Positions 5,572-63,464 are shown, counted from the whole stretch's first letter. The stretch is 63,464 bases of DNA, filler included, from Folioceros fuciformis (GCA_049999805.1; 10 parts of 10 records of this genome joined end to end with filler, not necessarily neighbours in it); one strand, 5' to 3'. The notes: generated by a model not told the origin, from the letters alone. Numbers and translations are program-made.

Positions 5572-5671
5572 NNNNNNNNNNNNNNNNNNNNNNNNNNNNN
5601 NNNNNNNNNNNNNNNTTAATTAATTAANNNNNNNNNNNNNNNNNNNNNNNNNNNNNNNNNNNNNNNNNNNN
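5572..5671. other. Artificial contig linker
   Basis: 100 bp of N flanking TTAATTAATTAA, which gives stops in all six frames. Confidence 0.99.
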
Positions 5672-8325: not shown

Positions 8326-8425
8326 NNNNNNNNNNNNNNNNNNNNNNNNNNNNNNNNNNNNNNNNNNNNTTAATTAATTAANNNNNNNNNNNNNNNNNNN
8401 NNNNNNNNNNNNNNNNNNNNNNNNN
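8326..8425. other. Artificial contig linker
   Basis: N-TTAATTAATTAA-N, 100 bp. Confidence 0.99.
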
Positions 8426-19851: not shown

Positions 19852-21099
19852 ATGCGGAGGATCATGAGGTCGAGCGCAACTTCGAGTGTGAGTGTGAGCG
19901 TGAGCGTGAGCATGGTGGTGGCTGGGGACTTGGGGTCCCCCGACCCCAGCTCCTCCAGCCTGGGCCTGGGAGGCCGCGACACGGACTGGGGCCAGCTCCC
20001 ACAGAGTCTGCTGGAGGAGGTGCTGCGGCGGCTGCCTGTTGCTGCGCAGTTGCGATTCCGGAGCGTGAGCAAGTGCTGGCTGGGGATCCTCACCAGCCCG
20101 GGCTTTCTGTGGGATTGCGTCCCCAGGGAGCCGGCCCCGGCCGCGATCCTAGCCCTGGGGGCCCGCTTCGTGCTGGAGGAGAGGGTGGAGCAGCCGTACC
20201 CGCTCCCGACCCCGCTCTGCTTCTACGGCCTCCCGCCGCTGCAGGGACCGCTGGCGAGAGTGGACCTCTGCGCCTCCCACGGAGGTCTCGTGTGCATTTT
20301 TCGCTTCCGCCAGTGCCGCCCGCCCCCGGGGGGAGGGTTCTTCGTGCTCAATCCCATGACCCGGTCGTGGCGGAAGCTGCCGGCCGGGCCTGCGAACCCC
20401 TCCACGATGGCCCTGCGGGTGGATGACGCCTCCAAGGCCTACACTGTCGTGGTGGGGGGGGCGGCGTCGCTCATCAGGGGCGCCGACTCGAGCTTCTACA
20501 TGTACGAGGCGAGCACGGACAAGTGGGAGGATGTCGGGCCGATTCGGTATGGGCTGCAGTGCCTTGACACGGTGTTTTTCGGGGAGGTGGCCTACTTCCT
20601 GGGTTCGGAGTTGGACGTGGTGGGCTGGAACGTGAAGAGCAGGGAGTGGGAGTCGAAGATCCTGCCGCCTCCGGCCGAGTTCGATACCGGCAGGCTGCTC
20701 TCGCACCGGGGGGAACTGCTCATGATCGCCCTCTACACTTGCGCCTCCAAAAGGTACGGGATCTGGCGGCTGCTGCCGGACGGGGTGTGGGGGCAGGTGG
20801 CGCTTCTCAGCGACAGCTCCTTCGGCGACTTCTTCCCCAACCTGGCCGCGCCCTCGCGGGGCCACGTCTGGTGCGTCTTGAGCTTTGGGGAGACCGTCTG
20901 CCTCGACCTTCTCCTGGACGAGCACGTGTTCCCTGAAGAAGAGGAAGAGGTCGAGAGTAAAACAGTCCGCCGCCGGGTCCTCCTCGCCTTCGACTTCTCC
21001 ATCAGGGCCTGGTTCGTCATGCCGCTGCAGTTCCTGAACTCTTTGAGCAGCACCGACTCCTTGCTCTCCTTCCAGCCCAGGTTGGACTCCATCGTGTGA
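19852..21099 (+). CDS. F-box protein with a kelch-like C-terminal region (415 aa, intronless)
   Basis: F-box motif WGQLPQSLLEEVLRRLPVAAQLRFRSVSKCW, then ASHGGLVC, VLNPMTRSWRKLP and C-terminal FQPRL. First ATG is at 19852. Confidence 0.92.
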   Translation: MRRIMRSSATSSVSVSVSVSMVVAGDLGSPDPSSSSLGLGGRDTDWGQLPQSLLEEVLRRLPVAAQLRFRSVSKCWLGILTSPGFLWDCVPREPAPAAILALGARFVLEERVEQPYPLPTPLCFYGLPPLQGPLARVDLCASHGGLVCIFRFRQCRPPPGGGFFVLNPMTRSWRKLPAGPANPSTMALRVDDASKAYTVVVGGAASLIRGADSSFYMYEASTDKWEDVGPIRYGLQCLDTVFFGEVAYFLGSELDVVGWNVKSREWESKILPPPAEFDTGRLLSHRGELLMIALYTCASKRYGIWRLLPDGVWGQVALLSDSSFGDFFPNLAAPSRGHVWCVLSFGETVCLDLLLDEHVFPEEEEEVESKTVRRRVLLAFDFSIRAWFVMPLQFLNSLSSTDSLLSFQPRLDSIV

Positions 21100-23557: not shown

Positions 23558-24381
23558 CCTGGAAGGAAGAAGGAAAGCAAGCGTTGCTGGGAAGACGCAA
23601 CGGAGTGAGGCTCTACGACCTGAAGTGCCCAAAAACAGGACCACAGTGACTCCTGTCGCACACACAACCTTCAGAACTTGCGACCAAGCTCGAACGTCCT
23701 GCCGTGTGTTTTGAAGACACCTGAACCCACCCTGTCGAGGAAGGATATGTCAAGGTAGGGGACGGAGAGCACAAAAGGAATGGAAAACAGGCGTCTGCCA
23801 AAACAGGAGGGAAAAGGAAAGATACGCAAACGTGAGACGGAGGAAGCAAGCCACAATGAATGCCACAAATGATCCGTTGCAATTCAACGGATCATGCATC
23901 GCCTGCAAGACATCGAGACCTCTGTCTCACCTACCAAGCTCGGCGGTGTTGGTCGCCTCAAACCTGGTTAGGGCTGGTGATCGTGATACGAGCTCATGTG
24001 CACTAGCTAGGTACTCTTTACATTGTGGCAGAGCTGTCTCTTAGCACAGTAGTAAGACGCAACCTAATGTGGCCTTTCTTCTAATGACGTGAGTATAAAG
24101 CATCAAGCGAAGCTGCAAGCCGAGTGTAAGGCCATAAGGCCCGATTCAACTTCACTGTGACGGCCAAACCGGGTTACGACCCGGTCTGGCTATGCTAGCA
24201 GCAAGGACTTTTGATGTTCTTCTTCATTAGTCTTTATATGGTGGCATTTGTGCTCGTAAGAGCTTGGTGCTTATGAAGCTTGGAGCCTCAATATCCCTTT
24301 TTGCTTAAGGGCCATAGCCACTTCATCTACCTTGGTTCGAATTTGTGTCTTTTATGTTCTTCTTTGCCACTTTTTTGACAA

Positions 24382-24448
24382 GCTTCCAAGAAGACAAGTA
24401 CTTAGTCTGCAATTGCTTCCAAGAAGACAAGTACTTAGTCTGCAATTG
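24382..24448. repeat. 33-bp perfect direct duplication
   Basis: GCTTCCAAGAAGACAAGTACTTAGTCTGCAATT occurs twice in tandem. Confidence 0.9.
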
Positions 24449-24584
24449 TACAATCTTACGCAACTTTTTGGAAACTTGTTACCATGCTAGCTTGATGAAA
24501 ACTTTGGTGTTTGAAGGAAAGAAATTGAAGTTAGAATCTCTTGGTGTTCAAAGGAAAGCTGAGAACTGAAGTATGAAAGTATGT

Positions 24585-25802
24585 GTGAGATCTGCATAGA
24601 AAATCTAGTGGATAAGAGTTGTAGTTTATCTCTACTGGTAAGTAAGAGCTAGCTAGCAAATGGTCGTGAAATCTGTGTAGGAAGTCTAGTAGATAAGTGT
24701 TATTACAGTAGTAGTAATCTTTGAATCTTTGCTGGTTAGCAAGAGCTAGCTAGTTGTTACAACAATAGTGAATCTTTGCTAGTTAGCAAGAGCTAGCTAG
24801 CGAATGATCTGCATAGAAAATCTAGTGGATAAGAGTTGTAGTTTATCTCTACTCGTAAGTAAGAGCTAGCTAGCAAATGGTCGTGAAATCTGTGTAGGAA
24901 GTTTGGTAGATAAGTGTTAATACAGTAGTAGTAATCTTTGAATCTTTGCTGGTTAGCAAGAGCTAGCTAGTGAATGGTCCTGAGATCTACATAGAAAGTC
25001 TGGTAGATAATAGTTGTTACAACAGTACTGAATCTTTGAATCTTTGCTAGTTAGCAAGAGTTAGCTAACGAATGGATGTGAGATCTATGTAGGAAGTCTG
25101 GTAGATAAGAGTAGTAACAACAGCAGTGAATCTTTGCTGGTTAGCAAGAGCTAGCTAGTTGTTACAACAGTACTGAATCTTTGCTGGTTAGCAAGAGCTA
25201 GCTAGTGAATGGTTGTGAGATCTATGTAGAAGTTTGGTAGATAAGAGTTGTTACAATAGTAGTGAATCTTTGCTGGTTAACAAGCTCGCAAATCGTCATG
25301 AGATCTGTACAAGAAGTCTAGTTTATAAGAGTTGTTACAACAAAAGTGAATCTTTGCTGGTTAGCAAGAACTAGCTCGTAAATTGTCGTGAGATCTGTAC
25401 AAGAAGTCTGGTAGATAAGAGTTGATACAACAATAGTGAATCTTTGCTGGTTAGCAAGAACTAGCTCGCAAATTGTCGTGAAATCTGTACAAGAAGTCTG
25501 GTAGATAAAAGTTGATACAACAATAGTGAATCTTTGCTGGTTAGCAAGAACTAGCTTGCAAATTGTCGTGAGATCTGTACAAGAGGTCTGGTAGATAAGG
25601 GAAGTGAGATCTATGCAGAAGTCTGATAGATAAGGGTAGTGAGATTTGTGCAAGAAGTTTGATAGATAAGGGTAGTAAGATTTGTGCAGGAAGTCTAGTA
25701 GATAAGGGTAGTGAGATCTATGCAAGAAGCCTGGTAGATAGGGGTAGTCAGATCTGTGTTACATTAACATATCTTCGTTGGTTAGCAAGAGCTAGCTAGC
25801 AA
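24585..25802. repeat. Complex degenerate minisatellite (about 90-bp units built from about 37-bp and 50-bp sub-units)
   Basis: GAGATCTGTACAAGAAGTCTGGTAGATAAG...GAATCTTTGCTGGTTAGCAAGA recurs at 25300, 25390, 25480 and 25570. Shorter 36-37 bp units occupy 25603-25760. Confidence 0.92.
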
Positions 25803-25971: not shown

Positions 25972-26071
25972 NNNNNNNNNNNNNNNNNNNNNNNNNNNNN
26001 NNNNNNNNNNNNNNNTTAATTAATTAANNNNNNNNNNNNNNNNNNNNNNNNNNNNNNNNNNNNNNNNNNNN
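25972..26071. other. Artificial contig linker
   Basis: N-TTAATTAATTAA-N, 100 bp. Confidence 0.99.
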
Positions 26072-32910: not shown

Positions 32911-33010
32911 NNNNNNNNNNNNNNNNNNNNNNNNNNNNNNNNNNNNNNNNNNNNTTAATTAATTAANNNNNNNNNNNNNNNNNNNNNNNNNNNNNNNNNN
33001 NNNNNNNNNN
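32911..33010. other. Artificial contig linker
   Basis: N-TTAATTAATTAA-N, 100 bp. Confidence 0.99.
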
Positions 33011-38436: not shown

Positions 38437-38536
38437 NNNNNNNNNNNNNNNNNNNNNNNNNNNNNNNNNNNNNNNNNNNNTTAATTAATTAANNNNNNNN
38501 NNNNNNNNNNNNNNNNNNNNNNNNNNNNNNNNNNNN
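38437..38536. other. Artificial contig linker
   Basis: N-TTAATTAATTAA-N, 100 bp. Confidence 0.99.
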
Positions 38537-47020: not shown

Positions 47021-47120
47021 NNNNNNNNNNNNNNNNNNNNNNNNNNNNNNNNNNNNNNNNNNNNTTAATTAATTAANNNNNNNNNNNNNNNNNNNNNNNN
47101 NNNNNNNNNNNNNNNNNNNN
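47021..47120. other. Artificial contig linker
   Basis: N-TTAATTAATTAA-N, 100 bp. Confidence 0.99.
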
Positions 47121-50426: not shown

Positions 50427-50526
50427 NNNNNNNNNNNNNNNNNNNNNNNNNNNNNNNNNNNNNNNNNNNNTTAATTAATTAANNNNNNNNNNNNNNNNNN
50501 NNNNNNNNNNNNNNNNNNNNNNNNNN
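50427..50526. other. Artificial contig linker
   Basis: N-TTAATTAATTAA-N, 100 bp. Confidence 0.99.
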
Positions 50527-52415
50527 TAGGCGCTCCAGGAGGGTGACCCGTACCAGGAGAACAGAACCGGAGGAGACAACACCTGGGCAGGTAGAGAACC
50601 TTCAGGTACCCCAGCAGGAGGGGGAGCAAGCAACCCAAGGTAGCCCAAGGGAGGACGGGGTAAGCACCTCTGTGATGACAGAAGGTCGGATTGTGCTGCC
50701 GTATGAGGAGGAGGCCTCCTATGTGCCAAGACTGTATGTAGAAGGGGCCAGGGTTCTGAAGCTATTTTTGTATGTACGTATGGGCACAGGAGGGACGCGG
50801 GGCTACGTCCTGCAGTTGAGGATGCGCCTAGGACTCTACCACTACAGATGGTGGGTGACAGGACTGTCCCACTGCTATGCGGAGGCAGTTCTGGAGGAAC
50901 TGACGGAAGAGGAGGCCTAGCGCTGGGTAGAACGGGGGCCTGTGGCTGTCCTCAATAACCAAAGAAGGAGGAGGGGTGGTGGACCACAGTTGCGGGACCC
51001 ACCTGCACCGCCAGCCAGGCCTAGCAGCAGCAGCAGTGATGTGGAGATCCTCTGGGAGGACCTGCCGGATCAACGGAGGGGCAGAAGAGCGAGAGGAGGA
51101 GCAGCGAGGGGTGACGTGGGAAGGCCAGGAGGAAGCCGCCAGCGGCGCAGGACAGGGCGATAGTAAATGCAGGCTAGAATAGTTTTTTTTAGCGTGCTTT
51201 ATTTGGACCCAAGTCGCTCAGAATTTAAGAGCGCAGCCCCCTTGCCTGACAGACTTTATGGCGGAAAAACTGCCATCACCGTATACAAGAGGCCGGTTTG
51301 AAGGCCTAAGGAAGTAGCAAAACACCAGCCGAGCAGTCGACCTTGCAGGAACCTAGCGATGGCCGTTGCCGGACAGGAGGTCCAGGCAAGCGAGCGCACG
51401 TAGCAACCTGGGGTGCGGGTGTAGGTGGTGGGCGCTCTGTGATCAGGTCCGGGGACGAATCGGGAGGAGGAGCCTCGCCGAGTGGGAGAGAAGCTCCCCA
51501 GCTATCCTCGAAGTGGTTACGTGGGTGGTGTGGGTGTCGGAGCCGAATCCGCGAGTTTGGAGTGGAAGGGGTCCCTCTTCCCTTAGCTCCGGTACCTCAC
51601 CATTCCTCAATGTTCATGGAAGCCCAGGAGGGGCATTGCTGAGAAAGGAGATGGAGGATTGGATAAAGAAGAAGCACGAGGGTGCGCGTGTGTGAGAAAG
51701 AGGAGAAGCGAGTAACCAGAGACGAGGAGAACGTATAACGAGAATTGGAGAGTGGAGAACGAAGTCGGAGAAACCTTGGAAGCGAGGTGAGTAATGTGTA
51801 ACGAGACGTGGTGAGTATGAGTGACTAGTCGCGATGAGGCTGGAGAGACTAAGAAAGTTGATTTGAGACTGCAGAGGGTGTACCTAGAGTGTGAAATCAC
51901 ACGGGTAGAAGGCGACCGGCAGATTGTCGTTGTTCATATGTGTGTGCGTTTGATCCTGAGGGTGAGAGGCTATTTTGTGGAGAACCAAGGAAGGAAAGCG
52001 CAAAAGGGAAGGCGCGAGAAAACAGTCGGGTAAGGACGACTCGGAGAGAGAGGAAATCCTAGAGAGAGAAAGAGAGAGGGAGTGGGACCCACGAGTGGTA
52101 GCCCGAAAGACGACAATAGTAGTCCATTGGGGAACGGAGGGTAGTCCGGCGGGCCACCAAGAGTAGTCCAAGGGAGGTAGTCCGTGGTGCGACTGGGTGG
52201 TAGGAGGGTCGTCTGGTGGGAGAAGTAAGGGGACTGGGTAAGGACCGAGCACGGGACGTGTGTGCGTGGGTCAGTCGAGTTTGGGTGCTAATTGACTTTA
52301 GAAGCTAACCTGTGTAGTTTAACACGAATCATTCCCTTGGGATCGAATCCCAGAGCTACAACGACATAGAGGGCTTGTGTGGACCTCGCGGTACCCCCGG
52401 GTACCATATTTTAAC
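50527..52415 (+). mobile_element. Unclassified repeat, copy 2 (left arm of an inverted pair)
   Basis: ORF 50543-51163 (TAG at 50918-50920) is homologous to 37130-37738. Its terminus is the reverse complement of 53182 onward. Confidence 0.8.
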
Positions 52416-53181
52416 CCCACAGCGAGGTAGAGGTTTTATGGGAGGATCTGCCTGACCAGTGAAGTGGAAGGAGGGCCCGGGGGTTTGGCGACCGGGGGAG
52501 GGGTACGCGAAGGCCGGATAGGAGGCAAGCGCGGCGATAGGATAGGCCATAATTCATTGCATCTTAGAGTAGCATTTAGTCAAGATCTGGTGAAGATGCT
52601 TTCTAGCCGCTCGTAATTAAGAGCGCCTGACAGCCTGAGACTGAACTTAATAGCGGCTACGATCCCGCCTGGCGCGTGTACAAAGAGGCCTATTGGTGCC
52701 TCACTAATCAGCAAAAGTTGGCAACTCTTCCCAGTTGAGGTCCTCGCACCGTCCATAGCTAAATTGAGGATGTTTGGGTGGGCAGCGTGTGCGTGAAGCT
52801 CTTAAGGGTGGTCGAGAGGTCTTTGCTCCACAGCTGGTGGTGAGGGGGACAAATCAGCAAGTGCCTGCTAAGTGGAAGGTCACCTTCCCTTATTCCTTGC
52901 ATTGCTAGTTGTGTTCTGCGGTGAGTGGTGAGGGGGACGAATCTGCCTGATGCGCGGAATGGAGGGAGAGTTTCTCCTTCCCTTATTCCCTGAACGATTG
53001 ATTGTGGTCCGTAACTGAGGTGAGGGGAACAAATTTGCCAGCTGCGCGGAGTGGAAGGGGAGCTTCTCCTTCCCTTATTTCATGACCCTTAGGTTGTGTT
53101 TTGAATCTGGTGTTGAAGAGGGTGTGTGAGATGACAAGGTGTCAAAGAGCGTGTGCAGGAAGATAAGGAGTGGAGAGTGAG

Positions 53182-55108
53182 TGTTAAAATATGGTACCCA
53201 AGGGTACCGCGAGGTCCACACAAGCCCTCTATGTCGTTGTAGCTCTGGGATTTGATCCCAAGGGAATGATTTGTGTTAAACTACACAGTTTAGCTTCTAA
53301 AGTCAATTAACACCTAAAACTTGACTGACCCACACACACACGTCCAGTGCTCGGACCTTACCAAGGCCCCTTACTTCTCCCACCAGACGACCCCTCAACC
53401 ACCCAGTCGCCCCAGGGACTACCTTCCCCTGGACTACTCTTGGTTGCCCACCGGGCTACCCTCCGTCTCTTTTCGGGCTACCTCCGTCGCCTTTCGGGCG
53501 ACGGTCGCCTAACGGTCTACCGCTCATGGGTCCCACTCTCTCTCTCTCTCTCTCAGTTCCCTCTCTCTAGGGTTTTCTCTCCCTAGGGTTTCCTCTCTCC
53601 CTCCAGGTTGTTCCTACCCGACTGATTACCTCCTGCCCGTGCATCCCCTTTTGCGCCTCCCTTCCTTGGTTCACCACAAAACCGCCTCACTCACCTCAGG
53701 AACAAGCGCACACACACATGAACAGCAGCAATCTGTTGGACGCCTTCCACCCGCATGTTCTCACACCTTAGATACACCCCCTACGGTCTCAATTCAGCTT
53801 CTTCACAGCCTCTCCAGTCTATCGCGACCAGTCACACATACACACCACATCTCGTTGCACCCCACACACATTACTCACCTCGCCTCCAGGGTTTCCCCCG
53901 GCTTTGTTCTCTCTTACCCACTCACCAGTTCTCTGTATACATTCTGCCCATCTGAACAGTCATCGAATTACTTCCACTCCGCTGCACTTCCTGCTTCCAC
54001 TCCTTCTGGCTTCCTTTTCGCATTCGCTCATACCCACTACTCAGCCACTTGCTCCTCCTCCTTCTCACACACGCGCACTCTCGCGCTCTCCTTTCTCCGG
54101 TTCTTCAGTCTTGTTTCTCAGCGATGCCCCTCCTGGGCTCCTATTAACGTTGAGGAACGGTGAGGTACTGGGGCTAAGGGAAGAGGAGTCCCTTCCACTC
54201 CAAACTCGCGGATTCGGCTCCGACACCCACACCACCCCACGTGACCACCTCGAGGATAGCTGGGGAGCTTCTCTCCCACTCGGTGAGAATCCTCCTCCCG
54301 ATTCGTCCCCGGACATGTGGGTGGCGCAGGTGGGTCCCACCGTTGTGGTCCACCACTCCTCCTCCTTCTCTGGTTGCTGAGGACAGCCACAGGCCCCCGT
54401 TCTACCCTGCGCTGGGCCTCCTCTTCCGTCAGTTCCTCCGGAACTGCCTTCGCATAGCAGTGGGGCAGTCTTGTCACCCACCAGCTGTAGTGGTAGAGTC
54501 CCAGGCGCGTCCTCAACTGTAGGCCGTAGCCCTGCGTCCCTCCTGTGCCCATACGTACATATAGAAACAGCTTCAGAACCCTGGCCCCTTCTACATACAG
54601 GCCTGGCACATAGGAGGCCTCCTCCTCATACTGCAGAATAATCCGACCTTCTGTCATAACAGAGGTGCTTACCCCGTCCTCCCTTGGGCTACCTCGCGTT
54701 GCTTACTCCCCCTCCTGTTGGGGTACCTGAAAGGTTCTCTGCCTGCCCAGCTGTTGCCTCCTCCGGCTCTGTCCTCCTGGTACGGGTCACCCTTCCGGAC
54801 CGCCTAGGGGCAGGCGCCCCTACTGCTTCCTCCTTCGTTTCCAGGGTTGGTTCTGTAGCTATCCTGGGCCTTGCTGGGCCACCGGTAGCCCCGTCGGCTA
54901 CCCGACTACCGGTAGTCCCGTGGACTACCAGACTACCGGTAGTCCCGTGGACTACCAGACTACCGGTAGTCCCGTGGACTACCAGACTACCGGTAGTCCC
55001 GTGGACTACCAGACTACCGGTAGTCCCGTGGACTACCAGACTACCGGTAGTCCCGTGGACTACCAGACTACCGGTAGTCCCGTGGACTACCAGACTACCG
55101 GTAGTCCC
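53182..55108 (-). mobile_element. Unclassified repeat, copy 3 (right arm of an inverted pair, internally deleted)
   Basis: TGTTAAAATATGGTACCC... mirrors 52415 leftwards. ORF 54657-54320 carries the same domain. Confidence 0.8.
54904..55108. repeat. 27-bp perfect tandem repeat (at least 7.5 copies, runs into the gap)
   Basis: Unit GACTACCGGTAGTCCCGTGGACTACCA. Confidence 0.97.
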
Positions 55109-55208
55109 NNNNNNNNNNNNNNNNNNNNNNNNNNNNNNNNNNNNNNNNNNNNTTAATTAATTAANNNNNNNNNNNNNNNNNNNNNNNNNNNNNNNNNNNN
55201 NNNNNNNN
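55109..55208. other. Artificial contig linker
   Basis: N-TTAATTAATTAA-N, 100 bp. Confidence 0.99.
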
Positions 55209-58200
55209 AGGCGATTAGGTAAGCCGCTAAACTTCATCCGCGTGCTGCTGCTGCTTTCCGGGCTAAACTGAGACGGACTCTATGTGACAAGAGGAGGAGA
55301 AAGAACTCCAGCATCCAGGTGATTATAATGGCTTTGAGCTTCATCCACCTGTCTGGAATTATAGGGTGACCTATGCAGATGCTGACCCTCTCTTACTGTA
55401 AACATAGGGGTGTGGGAGATATGAGAAGGCTAGCAATTCTGAGGAGTCAAGGCCCGCCCGTAAGTCCTTCTCATGCGTCCTGTGACTGCTTAGGCCTGAA
55501 ATATGGCTGATAATTAATAAGTCCTAAGCCTTCCATATGTTTCTGGTGTTTGTCCTTAGACAAGGCCTTTGTAAGGATGTCTGCTGTGTTATTATCTGTG
55601 GGTACATAGAAAATTTTTACTAACCCCCTCTCAGCGGCATCCCTTACATAGTGATGATGAACTTCAATGTGTTTTGTCTGGGCGTGGAAGCGGGGATTGG
55701 CCACAAGGAAGATCGTAGATTGATTGTCACAGTATAGGTGAGTAGGGCCAGTTTGTGTCTGCCCTAGATCATGTAAGAAAGATCGCTCCCATTCCACCTC
55801 TTTAGTTGCATCCGTTAACGACTTATATTTGGCTTCGATGCTCGACAGGGCAATACTAGTCTGTTTTTTACAACTCCAGTTCATAGAGGCTTGAGTAAGA
55901 AGAAAAGCATATGTGGAGAGGCTTTTGCGGGAGTCACTGTCCGAAGCCCAGTCGACATCAGTGAAACCCTCAAGCACAAGGTGAGAGTGTCCACCACGCT
56001 TGTAACATAAGCCAATATAGTGTGTACCTTTTAAATATCGAAAAATCCGTTTAACGGCGGTCCAATGAGGACGGCCTGGATTATCGAGAAACTAAGATAC
56101 CGTACTAACAGAATGTTGTATGTCAGGGCGAGTCCAATTGCTTACAAATATCAAACTGCCAACAGCCTAACGATAGGGAACATCAAGCATGTCCTACTTG
56201 TCAGCATATGTTACATGAGATTCATATCTGGTGAGTTTTGAACCTACAGCACCTGGTGTTGAAGCAGGATGAGCCTATCCCATGTGAAACCTATGTAGAA
56301 TCTCCGATATATATTTATGTTGATGAATGATGAGCAAACCGTCTGACCTAACCCGGAGAACTTGAATTCCTAAACAGAAGAGCAAATCTCCGCCGTCAGT
56401 CATTTCAAATGTATTCTTTAACAAAGTCTTGACATGTGCCAGAATACCAGGGTTGCTAGCTGCAAGTATGACATTATCAACATAAAGTGCAAGAATAACA
56501 TAAGCAGAGCCATCTCGAAATAGGTAAACATTCGAGTCAGCTTTGGATTGTGTGAAATTCAAAGACTTTAGGGCAGTATCACATCTTTTATACCACCGTT
56601 CTGCACTCTATTTTAGTCCATACATACATTTAATTAATAGGCAAACATTTAATTAAACATTGAGGAAGAATTATTCATGGTTGTTCCATGAATAATTCTT
56701 CCTCAAGAATACCATGGAGAAAAGCTGTGCAGACGTCAAGCTGCTGCAATTCCAAGTCATATTCAGCGGCAAGGGCAAGAATGATACGAATTGATTGAGC
56801 ACGGACAACAGACGAAAAGGTTTCTTGGTAGTCCAAACCTGCTACTTGGGTAAACCCCCTTGCACATAACCTAGCTTTATATCGAGCTATATGCCCATCT
56901 GCATTTAACTTATGCTTAAACACCCACTTACAAGTAATTGCTTTCCTCTTGGTAGGTCGGGGAACAAGTCGCCATGTGCCATTTTTTATCAAGCTATTAT
57001 ACTCGTCGTCTACAGCAAACTGCCACTTGTCCCTATCTGGTCTAGTGAGGGCCTCTGAAAGAGTGGTTGGCTCTAGAGGTATATCTGGAGGGGAAGAAAT
57101 TGCTAAAGCTGTATGTCGTTTGAAATCAATGCAGGCATATGGAGGTTCCTTCCATTCAGAGGGTGCAGGTTTATGCCTTGAGGAGCGACGTGGGCCAGCA
57201 TCCTCGACAGCTTGCTGAGCTGGTACATTTATAGGTTGGGATTGAGATGGCTGAGCATCTTCACCAGGTAGGTTACCAATCACTGGAGCATTACAATTGT
57301 CAATATCATCTAACACATTTGTTGGATTTTTTGCATGCTCGGAATGATCCGAATCTAACCCATTCAAGTCTGCTGCAAGAGGGTGTTGATCATCAACAGC
57401 AAGATCTGGATTAATTAGAGCTGGTCCTGGATTGTCTGCAGATAAGTTAGGGATGATACCATCAGCGTCCAAAGGATATAGAGATAAAAGACCAGGTGTG
57501 TCCTGAAAAGGTGCATCCTCAGCAAGTTGCTCAAAGGGATCATCATTAGACTCATCTCTTAATGGAGCAGGCTGTAAGGATTCAACAAAGGTAACACTTC
57601 TTGCTAGAACAGGTTGCCTGGATAATGGGTCAAAGAGCTTATATGCCTTAACAGTTTCACTATAACCCATAAATATGAGACGCTGTGAGCGATTATCAAG
57701 TTTTCTTCGTTTTTCTGCAGGTATAAAAGCATAAGCCTTTGAGCCGAAGATCCTCAGATGGAGAAGGCTAGGCTTTTGTTTCCTGAACAGCTCGAAAGGT
57801 GTTGTCTTGGAGAAAAGAGAGGTAGTCGGCAACCTATTAAGTATATAAGTTGAGGTAACAACTGCTTCTCCCCAGTAAGGGGATGGGAGACCTGACCACA
57901 ACAACATAGCTCAAGTCATGCTCATTAAAGTCTGGTTTTTCCTTTCAGCAACACCGTTTTCTTGCTGCGTATAGGGCACAATTAGTTGATGGATAATTCC
58001 TTTTGCAGCAAAGAGGTCTTCAAAAGACTGATTCACAAATTCTGATCCATTATCAGATCTGAAGATCTTGAGGAGACAGCCAGTTTGACGCTGTACAGTA
58101 AGTAACCAGTCTTGAAACAGAGGGAAAGTTTCATTTTTTCTCTTCATGGGGAATGTCCATGTATATCTGGTATAGTCATCTGTTATGGTGAAGTAATAAT

Positions 58201-60943
58201 CTGCCCCTCCAAGTGAAGAAACCTGAAGGCGACCAGAGATATCGGCATGCACCAAGTCCAGAGGTTGAGAAGATCTGTAAGCTAGGCCTGTAGGGAAGGG
58301 TTGTTCCTTTTGTTTCGCTAGGGCACATGTCTCACAAAGAGGAAGGTCTTTTAAGCAAGTAGGAAGAGGCTCACGGTAGCAGTCACTAGTACTAAGGGAT
58401 GACAAGGTTTTAAGGTTTAGATGTCCAAGTCGTGCATGCCAGAGAATGGACTGCTATTTAGCCGATAGGTTTCCTACTCTTGTACAGTGAGCTTGCTATT
58501 GACCTCCAACAATGCAGGTAAAGTTAAGCCGATAAAGATCATGCTCAGGTAAGGCCTTGAAAACACACACAGAGGGTGAGTTCTTTCTTGAGAAGCAACA
58601 GAAACCTTCTTTAGCTGTTAGCTAGAAGCTTCCATGTTTAAGCAGTCTACTTAGAGACAGTAAGTTTTTAGCCATACTAGGCACATATAAAACTTCTGAC
58701 AATGTTAGGGTAGATCCATCACTTAGCCTGAATACACAGGAACCCTGTCCTAAAATCTGCAGGCTGGTGGTTTTACGTTCATCACCTCAATACACTCTGT
58801 CTATACTAGAAGAGAGAGCTAAGGATGTGAAGAGGGACTCATCCCAGCATATGTGGGCTGTAGCCCCTGAATCCAGGTACCAGGTTGCTCCATCACCTGT
58901 GAAGGTAGACAAACAGACTGTTAAGATTTTGACCACTGGCTTGTTGGAATCTGCAGGCTTGTCACGAACAACAGCGCTGGCAGTAGAGCGAGAAGACTTG
59001 CGTGGCTCCCCAGCTTTCTTTTTCCTACATTCGTTAGCCTAATGACCAGGTTTACCGCACCAATTACAACTTCCAGTGCGTTTGGTAGAAGGACCTACAT
59101 CATGGCGTTGGCCTTCATTACGATTTCCCTCGTATGTAGACTGTATCCGTGTTTTATCTTTCTGTACCCCTCTACCACGGAAGGTTGTGAGCACTCTGTC
59201 AGCTTTGGTTTTCCCAGACCCTGACATGAGTCTACTTTGTTCTTCCTGGAAGAGGGCTCCTATCACCTCGTCTAAGGTGATAGTTACTTGTCTCCCAGCA
59301 GCACCAGCAGCCATAGCTTGTCTGATGGGAACATTGTGTGCAGATACAAAATTCTGGTAACTGGGTGGCAGGCTAGTGAGCAATTGAGCTATCACATCCA
59401 CCTCATCCATAACAGTACCAAGAGAAGCAAGTTGGGCTTGAAGGTGTCTAAGTTTGCTGGTATGAGCAAGAACTTTGTCCCCTTCTCGCATTTTCAGTCC
59501 ATAGAACTTCATGCGTAAAGCACAAAGTGTAAGGACATTATTTACCTTATAGTGGTTTTCCAATTGTGACCAGATCTCACTGGCCTTGGTAAGAAATTCA
59601 ATCTGGGGAATAAGATCCTTAGTCAGGCCAGAGACAAGGAGGGCAATGGCTATGCTATTAGCATGAGCCCATTTGTCCTTGTCTCCCTAAAGAGCAATGG
59701 AAGCTGGTTCAGGAAGAGAACCATCCACAATGTTCCAAACTCCTCTAGCCAGCAATGTCGACCTCATCCGCACTCTCCACACCTCGTATTTGTGACCAGT
59801 AAACCTGTCCTTTTCTTTTAATTCAGATGTAAAGACAGGGGTATATGATGCAGGAGATGGTGGTGGGTTGACATTAGCCATGGTAGTAGGTTGACCTACG
59901 TTCTAGATAGTTTGGATAAAATCAACCGATTCGCCAATCTTGAGGTTAGAGAGTGATTCGGCTAAATCATCTAGCCAGTCGTCCATACATGGTTGACTAA
60001 CAAAATGATTTATTTATGTAGGGATAAAGGATAGGGCACTAACAGAGGTCATGCTCACGGCAAAACGACAACCTGAACAGGTATTTCCCATAAAACCCTA
60101 AATTAAAAATGCCCTTTCGCATGAACACCGGTTCACATGAAAACTCTAACGGTTTGCTTCCAATTTTTCAAGAATGGGCAATAGGGTGGGGAGAAACAAT
60201 CCTGTTGCTGGCTGCGCCATGGAGATGGCACCCACTGTGGGTTTAGGATGATTGAGGCGCTGAAATTTCTGAATAAGAAAATGCAAGCGCCTACTAATCT
60301 AAGAAATTTTGGTAAAGATTTGATCAATCCTAGTAAGCATCCTGCGAGTCTGAAGCATATCATCAACGCCCTGCATGTGAGTGATAGGGGCCAATTGATC
60401 ATATAAATTGTGGTCAAAGAAATCACGGTCAGACTCCACACCAATACCAAAATTATGAGAATTTAGATCAGTAGTAGCTTGCGGTGATTGAAATATATTA
60501 GATTGATTTGTTTCCCTGGTCTGTACAGGTTTAGGACGACAACGCCTACGGAAAGACATTCTGATGTAGATCACAAGCAGGACAATACTTCATCTGTTAA
60601 AGATAAAAGATCTGAAGCATGATCATTTGATACCAAAGATCATTTGTAAATTAATTTTCTTTTTGCTTTATAGAAACTTCATTTCTTCTACCTACTTGGT
60701 AGCGGAAGCGCTGGCCATAAGAATTAAAAGCCATCGCCCTTTTTTATTAGAGCTCTGATACCATGTTAAGAAATGGTAATGCAGAAAAAGAGCATAAAGC
60801 AAAAAAAAATGATAATCATTAAGTGAGGCTCAAAAGTCTTTTTTTTAAACAACAAGTGATGACGTTTCACTAAACGCTATCCCCTAAAATAAACTAGCTT
60901 AAATAATAGCGAGTTAATGTTTATCCAGCCTTTATTCCAAACA
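55209..60943 (-). mobile_element. Near full-length degenerate Ty1/copia: 5' LTR (about 60943-60764), tRNA-iMet PBS (60763-60752), about 870-nt leader and gag-pol (59881-55471)
   Basis: Gag FTGHKYEVWRVRM, knuckle CNWCGKPGH, protease WYLDSGA, integrase (LVHADISG, RSDNGSEF, ENGVAERKN), RT (CKWVFKHK, mutated YVDN) and RNase H. Many stops and frameshifts. The 3' LTR is beyond the contig edge. Confidence 0.96.
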
Positions 60944-61248
60944 CAACTTGAAGTTTCTCCTGGAGATGGAGTGGACGAAGCTTGTGACTGGAATGGAGCT
61001 CCAGAAGGCAGAACTTGGTTTGTGTCACGCTTGTATGAAAGGCAAGCATCCCCGAAGATCTTCTGTTTCAATCACGAAGAGAGCAAAAGAAGTCTTGGAA
61101 CTTGTCCACTTTGATCTTTGCGGACCAATGCAAGTGGAAGCAAGGATGATACAGGTGAAATACTATATTTCGTTTATCATCAACTATAGTAGGAGAACAG
61201 CGGTGTACTTCCTACGGAAGAAGAGTGACGCTCTCAAGCATTTCAGAT
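60944..61248 (+). mobile_element. Fragment of another Ty1/copia (GAG-pre-integrase and integrase start) hosting the antisense insertion
   Basis: CHACMKGKH...LELVHFDLCGPM...YSRRTAVYFLRKKSD. Confidence 0.9.
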
Positions 61249-61348
61249 NNNNNNNNNNNNNNNNNNNNNNNNNNNNNNNNNNNNNNNNNNNNTTAATTAA
61301 TTAANNNNNNNNNNNNNNNNNNNNNNNNNNNNNNNNNNNNNNNNNNNN
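61249..61348. other. Artificial contig linker
   Basis: N-TTAATTAATTAA-N, 100 bp. Confidence 0.99.
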
Positions 61349-63464
61349 GTATTACCTATAGTATAGATAATTACTAGAGTATAGCTTTCTATTATAGTTA
61401 TAGAGTTTCTATTAGTTTTCTTTATTATCTAAGTATACTAACTCTTCTTCTAATAGTATTTTCTAAGTTTAATATTTAAACGTTTCTACTTAAGTATACT
61501 ATTATACTAAGTTTTAGTAACTAGTAGTATCTTATAAAGTATTCTATTTATCTAGTTATAGTAGAATATTTTCTTTATTTTTCTTAGTATACTAGTTATT
61601 ACTTACTAGAATAGTACTTCTAGCTATTTCTTTATATAGAGTTTATATTATTTTATTAAGTTTCTATATTATATCTATTATAGAGTTTCTATTTAGTTCT
61701 AATATAGTACTAGTTATAGAGTTTCTATCTAGTTTAGAGCTTTCTTTATTCTACTTCTCTACTTAAAAGAGTATATTAAGTATTTAATTAGAGATATTAT
61801 ATTCTCTTCTACCTTTAATACTACTAACGTAATATATTACTTTATTTCTAAACTTATAATTTCTAGTAAAGTATCTAAACTTACTATAGTTATAGTATAT
61901 CTTTATATTATTCTTATTCTCTTTATTTATAGGTTTCTTCTACTTCTTTTCTTTATAGTTAACGTTATTAAAGTATATAGTCTTAGATTAGTTAGAAGTA
62001 TAATATTCTACTATTTAGTTTTCTTATATAGATCTTATAAAGTAGTTTCTTCTTTTACCTATATTAGCTATATTCTTTTTTTAGTAGAAGCTTTATTTCT
62101 TAAGATATAACTTATAGAGTTTATTATTAATTTAAATACTTTCTTCTATAAGTTATTCTAGGCTATTTTAAATAGCTTCTATATATATAAGTTTTTTATA
62201 TACTTAATTCTTTAGACTTTACTTAAATATTCTCTTAAAGAAGTTATTATTCTAGTTTAGTTATATCTTAAGTAATTTAAATTTAGTAGTATAGTCTAAA
62301 ATAAAAGTAGTTTATTAGAGTTATTAAATATTTTATTCTACTACTACTTTCTTCTTCTAAAGTCTAAATACCTTTTAAAGTTACTTCTTAAAGATACTCT
62401 ATTTATTAATTATTCTATTATTTATAGAATTAGTAATATCGTTATTTATATAATAGGTTATATAGAGTTTTATCTAGTTAGCTACTTTATTTCTTATATA
62501 GGTTAAGATAAGTAGAACTTACTTTTCTTTATTAATATTATCTTCTTCTAAGTAAAAGTATATATTTTACTATATAAGCTATATTTTAAGCTTCTTATAT
62601 TCGCTATAGTAAAGATCTAGTTTCTTAGTAACTTTATAATATTTATTACTTCTAGAGCTAGAAGTATTTATTAAAGTATTATTTATCTTAAGAATAATTA
62701 AAGTATTATAGACTATACCTAAGAGTATATAAAGTACTTAAGATATATAATAAATATAGATATTAAGTATAGAAGTACTTAGGTTAAGTTTTATAAATAG
62801 AGTAAATTTAATAAATAAGAGTTAAAATAACTAAGTAGTTTTAAGTATAGTATCTAAGTTAGATAACTAAGTTAATTATAATATTCTAGTAATATTAGAT
62901 CGTAAGATTTATATATATAAGGCTTTCTATAGTTTTTATAAAGTACTATAGAATTCTATAGTTCTTTCTATAGTTCTATACTTATATAAGAGTACTAAGT
63001 ATAGAATTATAGAACTACGTAATCTAGTATTATTAATTAGATATCTAATACTTTAAGGTAACTAGGCTCTATACTTTATATATCTCCTTACTTATAAATA
63101 CTATACCTTACTTTTTAGATTTATTATAATTAGTAGTTAGTAGTTTATTAACTACTACTAACTACTAATTACTAACTACTAATTAGTTATATAATTAGCT
63201 AATTATACTTAAGCTATATCTTACTTAGCTTTATATAATATACTTTCTATATAAGCTACGTACTTAGATAAACTATATACTCTACTAAGACTATACTAAA
63301 CTTTATTAACTTATTATAATTTATAGTAATACTTTAATACTATAACGTATATAGAAAATTTAATAAATCTTAAGTATAGCTTACTATCTAAGCTTTAAAA
63401 TAAGATATATCTCTCTTAATCTAATTTATTATAGCTATATATAATATATCTAAAAGTATACTAT
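61349..63464. other. Very AT-rich contig with a repeat-induced point mutation (RIP) signature, probably a fungal repeat relic
   Basis: I found no CpA or TpG by eye over 2.1 kb. TpA is abundant, C survives mostly as CpT and G as ApG, and there are no ORFs. Confidence 0.85.

Follow-up and report, generated by a model that had tools for sequence, protein, structure and literature searches.

RIP is described in PMC7882544 as a fungus-specific defence that is seen in Ascomycota and certain Basidiomycota, and the same account has it widespread in Pezizomycotina and absent from Saccharomycotina and Taphrinomycotina. The stringent thresholds given there for RIP-affected DNA are a product index, TpA/ApT, above 1.15, a substrate index, (CpA+TpG)/(ApC+GpT), of at most 0.75, and a composite index above 0, and a stretch of more than 4 kb that is consecutively affected is termed a large RIP-affected region (LRAR) (PMC7882544). 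In the figures quoted by that source, LRARs of Fusarium and Trichoderma species have average GC contents of 14.9 to 23.2%, and those of F. circinatum average 1.6 for the product index and 0.2 to 0.3 for the substrate index (PMC7882544).

We analysed a window of 63,464 bases, meaning the whole stretch of DNA at its full length, in which ten contigs of 2.1 to 17.5 kb are split by nine identical artificial spacers (Table 1). Neighbouring position in the window carries no information on physical linkage. The last of the ten, contig 10, is separated from contig 9 by the spacer at 61249..61348 and has no plant flank of its own. Its 2,116 bp comprise 740 A, 218 C, 191 G, and 967 T, corresponding to a GC content of 19.3% against 42 to 56% in the other nine contigs, a comparison with plant contigs rather than with the carrier genome. 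Neither CA nor TG occurs in it (expected from base composition, 163.5, or about 164 for the two together), and the probability of this by chance is about e^-164. TA, in turn, occurs 504 times against 338 expected (observed/expected 1.49), and AT occurs 293 times. The dinucleotides CG (9; observed/expected 0.46), CC (7), and GG (8) are scarce. Of 218 C, 202 stand before a T, and of 190 G, 173 come directly after an A; 102 TpC survive alongside the 202 CpT. These counts confirm what the sequence-only reading had described by eye, namely no CA or TG in 2.1 kb, a strong excess of TA, few CG, CC, or GG, and C nearly always before T. Its further remark that CA and TG are plentiful elsewhere is also borne out, with 36 to 97 CA and 37 to 115 TG in the full 1-kb windows of the other nine contigs.

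RIP-affected status was judged by the RIPper stringent criteria as given in PMC7882544. Contig 10 passes all three thresholds, with a product index of 1.72 (504/293), a substrate index of 0.00 (0/200), and a composite index of 1.72, and it is affected from end to end over a length that is shorter than the 4 kb of an LRAR. None of the remaining nine contigs passes all three; their TpA/ApT values range from 0.60 to 1.44 and their substrate indices from 0.96 to 1.50. The calculation of these indices had been proposed in the sequence-only reading, and the values uphold the RIP signature. Elsewhere in the window, two 1-kb windows have a high product index, 24001-25000 and 54001-55000, with substrate indices of 1.09 and 0.88, respectively. 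In the second of these, which lies in contig 8, TpA/ApT reaches 2.25 while the substrate index stays at 0.88, so that a positive composite index alone would falsely call RIP.

Table 1. Features of the 63,464-base window, with coordinates counted from its first base
Feature	Coordinates	Strand	Basis or remark
Artificial spacers	5572-5671, 8326-8425, 25972-26071, 32911-33010, 38437-38536, 47021-47120, 50427-50526, 55109-55208, 61249-61348	.	Identical N44-TTAATTAATTAA-N44
TAXi-type aspartyl protease ORF, contig 3	16577-17398	-	TAXi_C, TAXi_N
F-box/KIB1-4 ORF, contig 3	19564-21099	+	Pfam; GC 67% in 20001-21000
Organellar-type cysteinyl-tRNA synthetase exons, contig 6	41170-42586	-	Homology
ABC1 atypical kinase exons, contig 6	45076-45483	+	Homology
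Whole of contig 10, read as a RIP-saturated non-coding repeat relic	61349..63464	.	CA/TG 0, indices, stops, no Pfam family
Ghost of a protein-coding frame, contig 10	61549..62648	+, coding strand uncertain	Purine 3-periodicity
125-codon stop-free stretch in the ghost frame	61733..62107	+	No ATG, not a live gene
High-copy sub-repeat of ~200 bp, contig 10	62704..62900, boundaries approximate	.	Depth peak in run X1, loose ends

No ATG and no TGA is present in contig 10, and TAA (126) and TAG (99) together account for 225 trinucleotides on the + strand; each of the six frames contains 63 to 127 stop codons. RIP makes transitions only, so the purine/pyrimidine pattern of an ancestral sequence would be expected to survive it. 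Purines in contig 10 do show a periodicity of three, which reaches a p value of 0.0014 over the whole contig with no choice of region. In a region of ~1.1 kb that was picked after inspection (Table 1, ghost frame), the phase of this periodicity is constant, and purines occupy 141/366, 124/367, and 181/367 positions of the three codon phases (chi2 19.3, p 6.5e-5). The most open frame here is a + frame with codon position 1 at coordinate mod 3 = 2. The last 616 nt of the contig give a purine-phase chi2 of 0.0. Among the controls, three real ORFs of the window gave chi2 values of 8.9 to 13.7 and two non-coding sequences gave 0.0 and 3.1.

The ghost frame also contains a stop-free stretch of 125 codons, over which the 32 stop trinucleotides of the + strand are all out of frame, 13 in one of the remaining frames and 19 in the other. 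A stretch of 125 codons was reached in 0 of 1,000 simulations for each of three Markov models (contig first-order, contig second-order, and local first-order). We read the periodicity and the open stretch as the fossil of a protein-coding frame, the coding strand of which is uncertain because RNY-type periodicity opens the in-register antisense frame too.

The ancestor of contig 10 was most likely a transposable element. A Pfam search of its six frames, with X placed at TAA/TAG stops, returned no family at E<=1. We also used a RIP-aware alignment, in which any T may stand for a former C and any A for a former G, and compared the six frames with translations of ten gypsy and copia ORFs of the window. 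The best z was 4.7 in 60 tests; the matches lay in inconsistent, non-collinear frames, none of them in the ghost frame, and were judged to be noise. LTR-element domains (RT, RNase H, integrase, and gag) were found in contig 10 neither by Pfam nor by the RIP-aware alignment, the targets of the latter being plant LTR elements only. Internal repeats of the contig are short and imperfect, with no LTR pair or TIR found among them.

Five public runs contain parts of contig 10. The share of sampled words found is 0.67 and 0.56 in two runs of one sample (X1 and X2), 0.08 and 0.07 in two runs under another organism label, and 0.05 in a plant-metagenome run (X5). Relatives of the contig therefore occur in runs of three studies, the possible source study and two more, one of which is labelled plant metagenome. 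Run X6, from the same sample as X1 and X2, contains almost none of the words of contig 10 though the family is abundant in X1.

To map the family, Logan contigs of runs X1, X3, X4, and X5 were aligned on contig 10 at an identity of at least 90%. Run X1, which comprises 323 Mb of contigs in 1.28 million pieces, places 533 Logan contigs on these 2.1 kb (109 at 99% identity or more, 174 at 95 to 99%, and 250 at 90 to 95%), and X3, X4, and X5 place 214, 232, and 58. Exact pieces have a word depth of 5 to 12 in X1, whereas the summed depth is 25 to 330 over most bins and rises to 1920. With 533 contigs and a summed depth this far above that of the exact pieces, the sequence is repeated in its carrier, as is required of a target of RIP.

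The depth is greatest over a sub-repeat of ~200 bp (Table 1), which has 10 to 20 times the copy number of the rest of contig 10 and lies in varied contexts. In X1 the summed depth is 1547 to 1920 in bins spanning 62698-62910, and the same peak is present in X3, X4, and X5; loose ends were found at 62704 (X1), 62713 (X5), and 62897 (X3). The flank before 62713 in X5, the plant-metagenome run, contains CA, which suggests a less mutated context of the sub-repeat in another genome or copy. Two patterns taken from the high-copy segment, an exact 30-mer and a 39-letter one containing three R, matched no locus in JGI metagenome contigs, a result that is uninformative on habitat.

Transitions predominate among the variant places, with 85 of 92 in X1, 78 of 87 in X3, 89 of 100 in X4, and 33 of 38 in X5. 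The best-supported 40 of the 149 variant places include 35 transitions, of which 26 are in a CpT context, 5 in CpC, 4 in CpG, and none in TpA. Simple arithmetic puts the probability of 0/35 at about 1e-10 if transitions were blind to context, given that 48% of the possible transitions in contig 10 are at TpA. At two CG sites of contig 10, other copies have TA, and neither TG nor CA is listed there as an intermediate. Of the 24 loose-end consensus sequences shown from the four runs, all of AT-rich appearance, 23 lack CA and TG by eye, the exception coming from X5. Contig 10 is thus one member of a multi-copy family, and all copies seen are saturated at CpA. RIP that strikes many copies independently would produce this pattern, removing CpA throughout and leaving the remaining differences in less favoured contexts.

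Methyl-cytosine decay in plants converts CpG to TpG and CpA and hence raises CA and TG. A transition bias between copies can also come from this process, and it is the absence of CA and TG that points to RIP. Taken with the thresholds passed, the depleted GC content, the multi-copy family, and the transition-type differences between copies, the RIP reading first made by eye is supported.

An origin of this composition without RIP is hardly credible. Such an origin would be either a deamination artefact, from a library of the bisulfite or EM-seq type, or selective avoidance of CA and TG by a genome. C-to-T conversion is the product of such libraries, but the survival of CpT and TpC in contig 10 in the numbers given above means that conversion was context-specific. 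Further, CA and TG are both missing from one strand, hence both strands were hit, and the same family is present in runs of three studies. A bisulfite-type artefact was rejected on these grounds: the sparing of CpT, the involvement of both strands, and the recurrence in three studies. Selection-driven avoidance of CA and TG was rejected as well, since contig 10, with no ATG and with stops throughout every frame, cannot code. On our best reading, RIP fits contig 10 better than any alternative considered.

The other contigs of the window have a different character. Contig 3 codes for a TAXi-type aspartyl protease (Pfam TAXi_C, 5.9e-32; TAXi_N, 1.8e-12) and, by Pfam, for a protein with an F-box and a KIB1-4 propeller. 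Xylanase inhibitors are the solved structures that come closest to the protease, for which 165 homologues were obtained at E<=1e-10; among the 120 of these that were listed, the best full-length identity is ~35% and all organism-named homologues are from land plants. The end of this contig is a tail of 40% GC with a TpA/ApT of 1.4 to 1.5. Contig 6 bears exons of an organellar-type CysRS and of an ABC1 kinase. One CysRS exon is 82 to 88% identical to chloroplastic/mitochondrial CysRS of conifers, liverworts, Amborella, and many angiosperms; its organism-named homologues are land plants only, none closer than this range. At least two contigs therefore carry land-plant genes, and among the species with named proteins in the database, the source plant seems to have no close relative. 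Rfam gave 0 matches over the whole window, and hence no fungal rDNA, and no fungal gene was found in the window either.

The copia and gypsy ORFs in contigs 1, 4, and 9 are still recognised by Pfam, and these contigs have substrate indices of 1.25 to 1.35 and product indices of 0.84 to 0.88, that is, no RIP signature. With such normal indices, the LTR retrotransposons of contigs 1, 4, and 9 have not been acted on by the process that shaped contig 10. The sequence-only reading had held that linkage of contig 10 to plant DNA would imply either transfer or a RIP-like process in a plant; the untouched retrotransposons argue against the second of the two. A comparison of contig 10 with the other 61 kb in purine/pyrimidine space gave a longest match of 31, against 26 to 30 in five shuffles, so contig 10 is not a transition-degraded copy of other DNA in the window.

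Two of the neighbouring contigs have further repeat structure. Contig 9 contains a copia-type element with gag, integrase, SH3-like, and RVT_2 domains at 55471-59686 (- strand), and a second integrase-like frame was seen by eye at 60960-61248 (+ strand), running into the contig end; the two would be nested or adjacent retroelements. Contig 8 (50527-55108) has long inverted repeats at 50601-51012 and 54320-54731 (412 nt, 92%), together with nested pairs; in the same region there is a 27-nt tandem array at 54827-55123. Contig 8 may represent a plant element of the TIR type; Pfam gave no match there.

These neighbours also bear on the possibility that the labelling is reversed, such that the assembly is fungal, or that of a mixed holobiont, and the plant contigs are the foreign ones. 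We regard this as unlikely. Exact pieces of contig 10 at word depth 5 to 12 in X1 do indicate that the fungal genome makes up more than a trace of that run. Against this, at least five of the nine other contigs have land-plant genes or LTR-retrotransposon ORFs without RIP, none of the nine passes the RIP thresholds, and the 323 Mb of contigs in X1 far exceeds an ascomycete genome.

The complete lack of CA and TG also limits the time since RIP last acted. In contig 10, CA or TG would be created by 1026 of the 2116 possible transitions (48%) and by 1088 of the 4232 possible transversions (26%), which sets an upper bound of 7 to 9 random substitutions (0.35 to 0.43%) since the last RIP sweep (95%). 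Zero CA and TG thus allow at most about 0.4% random change, and RIP would accordingly have been at work in the carrier genome until very recent times. A prolonged passive residence in a plant genome is excluded, since methyl-cytosine decay there, even at just the nine CpG, would give rise to TG and CA; the zero count stands against an old integration of contig 10 into the plant.

A recent integration would have to take the form of a fungus-to-plant transfer of an AT-rich repeat block, with the RIP relic lying passive in the plant nuclear genome thereafter. Contig 10 is indeed filed with plant contigs, and the presence of the family in runs of two organism labels and a plant metagenome would also fit inheritance in related plants. 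However, contig 10 is not flanked by plant sequence and, by eye, CA and TG are absent from all but one of the 24 loose ends shown; the bound on change after RIP, together with the expected decay of the nine CpG, would make any stay very recent; and contig 10 has no likeness to the other 61 kb even at the purine/pyrimidine level. The hundreds of fragments with RIP-type differences imply many copies that underwent independent mutation, which needs RIP in the carrier genome. We therefore consider such passive residence highly improbable. Still less probable, to the point of being extremely so, is that the RIP-saturated family as a whole resides in the plant nucleus, whether through a very recent transfer or, more radically, through a RIP-like, CpA-directed deamination in a land plant.

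We consider it very probable that contig 10 is the RIP-inactivated relic of a repeated, once-coding element of a Pezizomycotina fungus, co-assembled with the plant. We infer a fungal origin because RIP is reported only from fungi. The RIP would have taken place in pre-meiotic dikaryotic cells, where duplicated DNA would be recognised and C changed to T on both strands, chiefly at CpA, such that CpA and TpG would be turned into TpA. Repeated rounds would have removed every CpA and TpG and most CpG and CpC too, taking the GC content down to 19% and leaving a stop-riddled sequence without ATG. The carrier would be a Pezizomycotina fungus in or on the sequenced plant material, or a laboratory contaminant, whose DNA was assembled together with that of the plant, and contig 10 would be present in the window only because small contigs of one assembly have been joined to make up the window. 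The sequence-only reading had likewise proposed a fungal endophyte or contaminant; the RIP signature and the plant neighbours without RIP support this, and from them we infer contamination. Contig 10 is most likely a contaminant.

A RIP-like process in another fungal lineage, for example a basidiomycete, would leave the fungal origin in place and change only the carrier. In the signatures described for basidiomycete RIP, CpG-containing triplets are targeted rather than CpA. CpG is strongly depleted in contig 10, as the nine remaining sites indicate, and RIP has been observed in certain Basidiomycota according to PMC7882544, but the complete and dominant loss is at CpA and TpG, with gain of TpA. 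An origin outside Pezizomycotina is thus very unlikely, and a Pezizomycotina carrier is the reading that we retain.

As read here, contig 10 shows that the sequenced plant material contained a filamentous ascomycete in which RIP was active or had been so very recently. If contig 10 did belong to the plant genome, this would amount to a remarkable inter-kingdom transfer, and the evidence points away from this. Its main significance is for assembly hygiene, in that a fully RIP-mutated, non-coding fungal repeat can escape similarity-based screens of the kind described in PMC10898089. A substrate index near 0 together with a product index above 1.15 would provide a cheap and specific dinucleotide flag for such sequences.

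Contig 10 can be compared with three known systems. The first is methyl-cytosine decay in plant transposable elements, which it resembles in the dominance of transitions in the divergence between repeat copies, and from which it differs in having no CA or TG; the LTR retrotransposons of the other contigs, with their substrate indices of 1.25 to 1.35, have not lost them.

The second is the foreign sequence in genome assemblies. Conterminator is said to screen for foreign sequences in public eukaryote assemblies, as FCS-GX does. Like the foreign sequences for which FCS-GX screens (PMC10898089), contig 10 is a short unplaced contig with a composition and mutational history alien to the others. 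Among foreign contigs it is special in being non-coding, repetitive, and low in complexity. As FCS-GX is presented in PMC10898089, its cross-species signal comes mostly from coding sequence, repeats and low-complexity sequence are discounted, and its median sensitivity is quoted as 17 to 63% for 1-kb eukaryote fragments of species absent from its database. Given this reliance on coding sequence and the discounting of repeats, a contig such as contig 10 could pass the screen.

The third system is that of the LRARs or AT-isochores of Fusarium, Trichoderma, Neurospora, Leptosphaeria, Pyrenophora, and Zymoseptoria, for which the values given in PMC7882544 are a GC content near 15 to 23% and a product index of about 1.6 or more. 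With the Pezizomycotina LRARs as portrayed in that source, contig 10 also shares a very low substrate index, an origin from repeats, and C-to-T/G-to-A differences between copies (PMC7882544). The CpT context of 26 of the 35 transitions between copies also agrees with the description in PMC7882544. Unlike the F. circinatum averages cited there (substrate index 0.2 to 0.3; PMC7882544), its substrate index is exactly 0, and unlike Pezizomycotina LRARs, it is only 2.1 kb long, below 4 kb, and is filed with plant DNA. Contig 10 is most likely biologically ordinary, a RIP relic of an ascomycete in a plant assembly and as such a known kind of contamination case.
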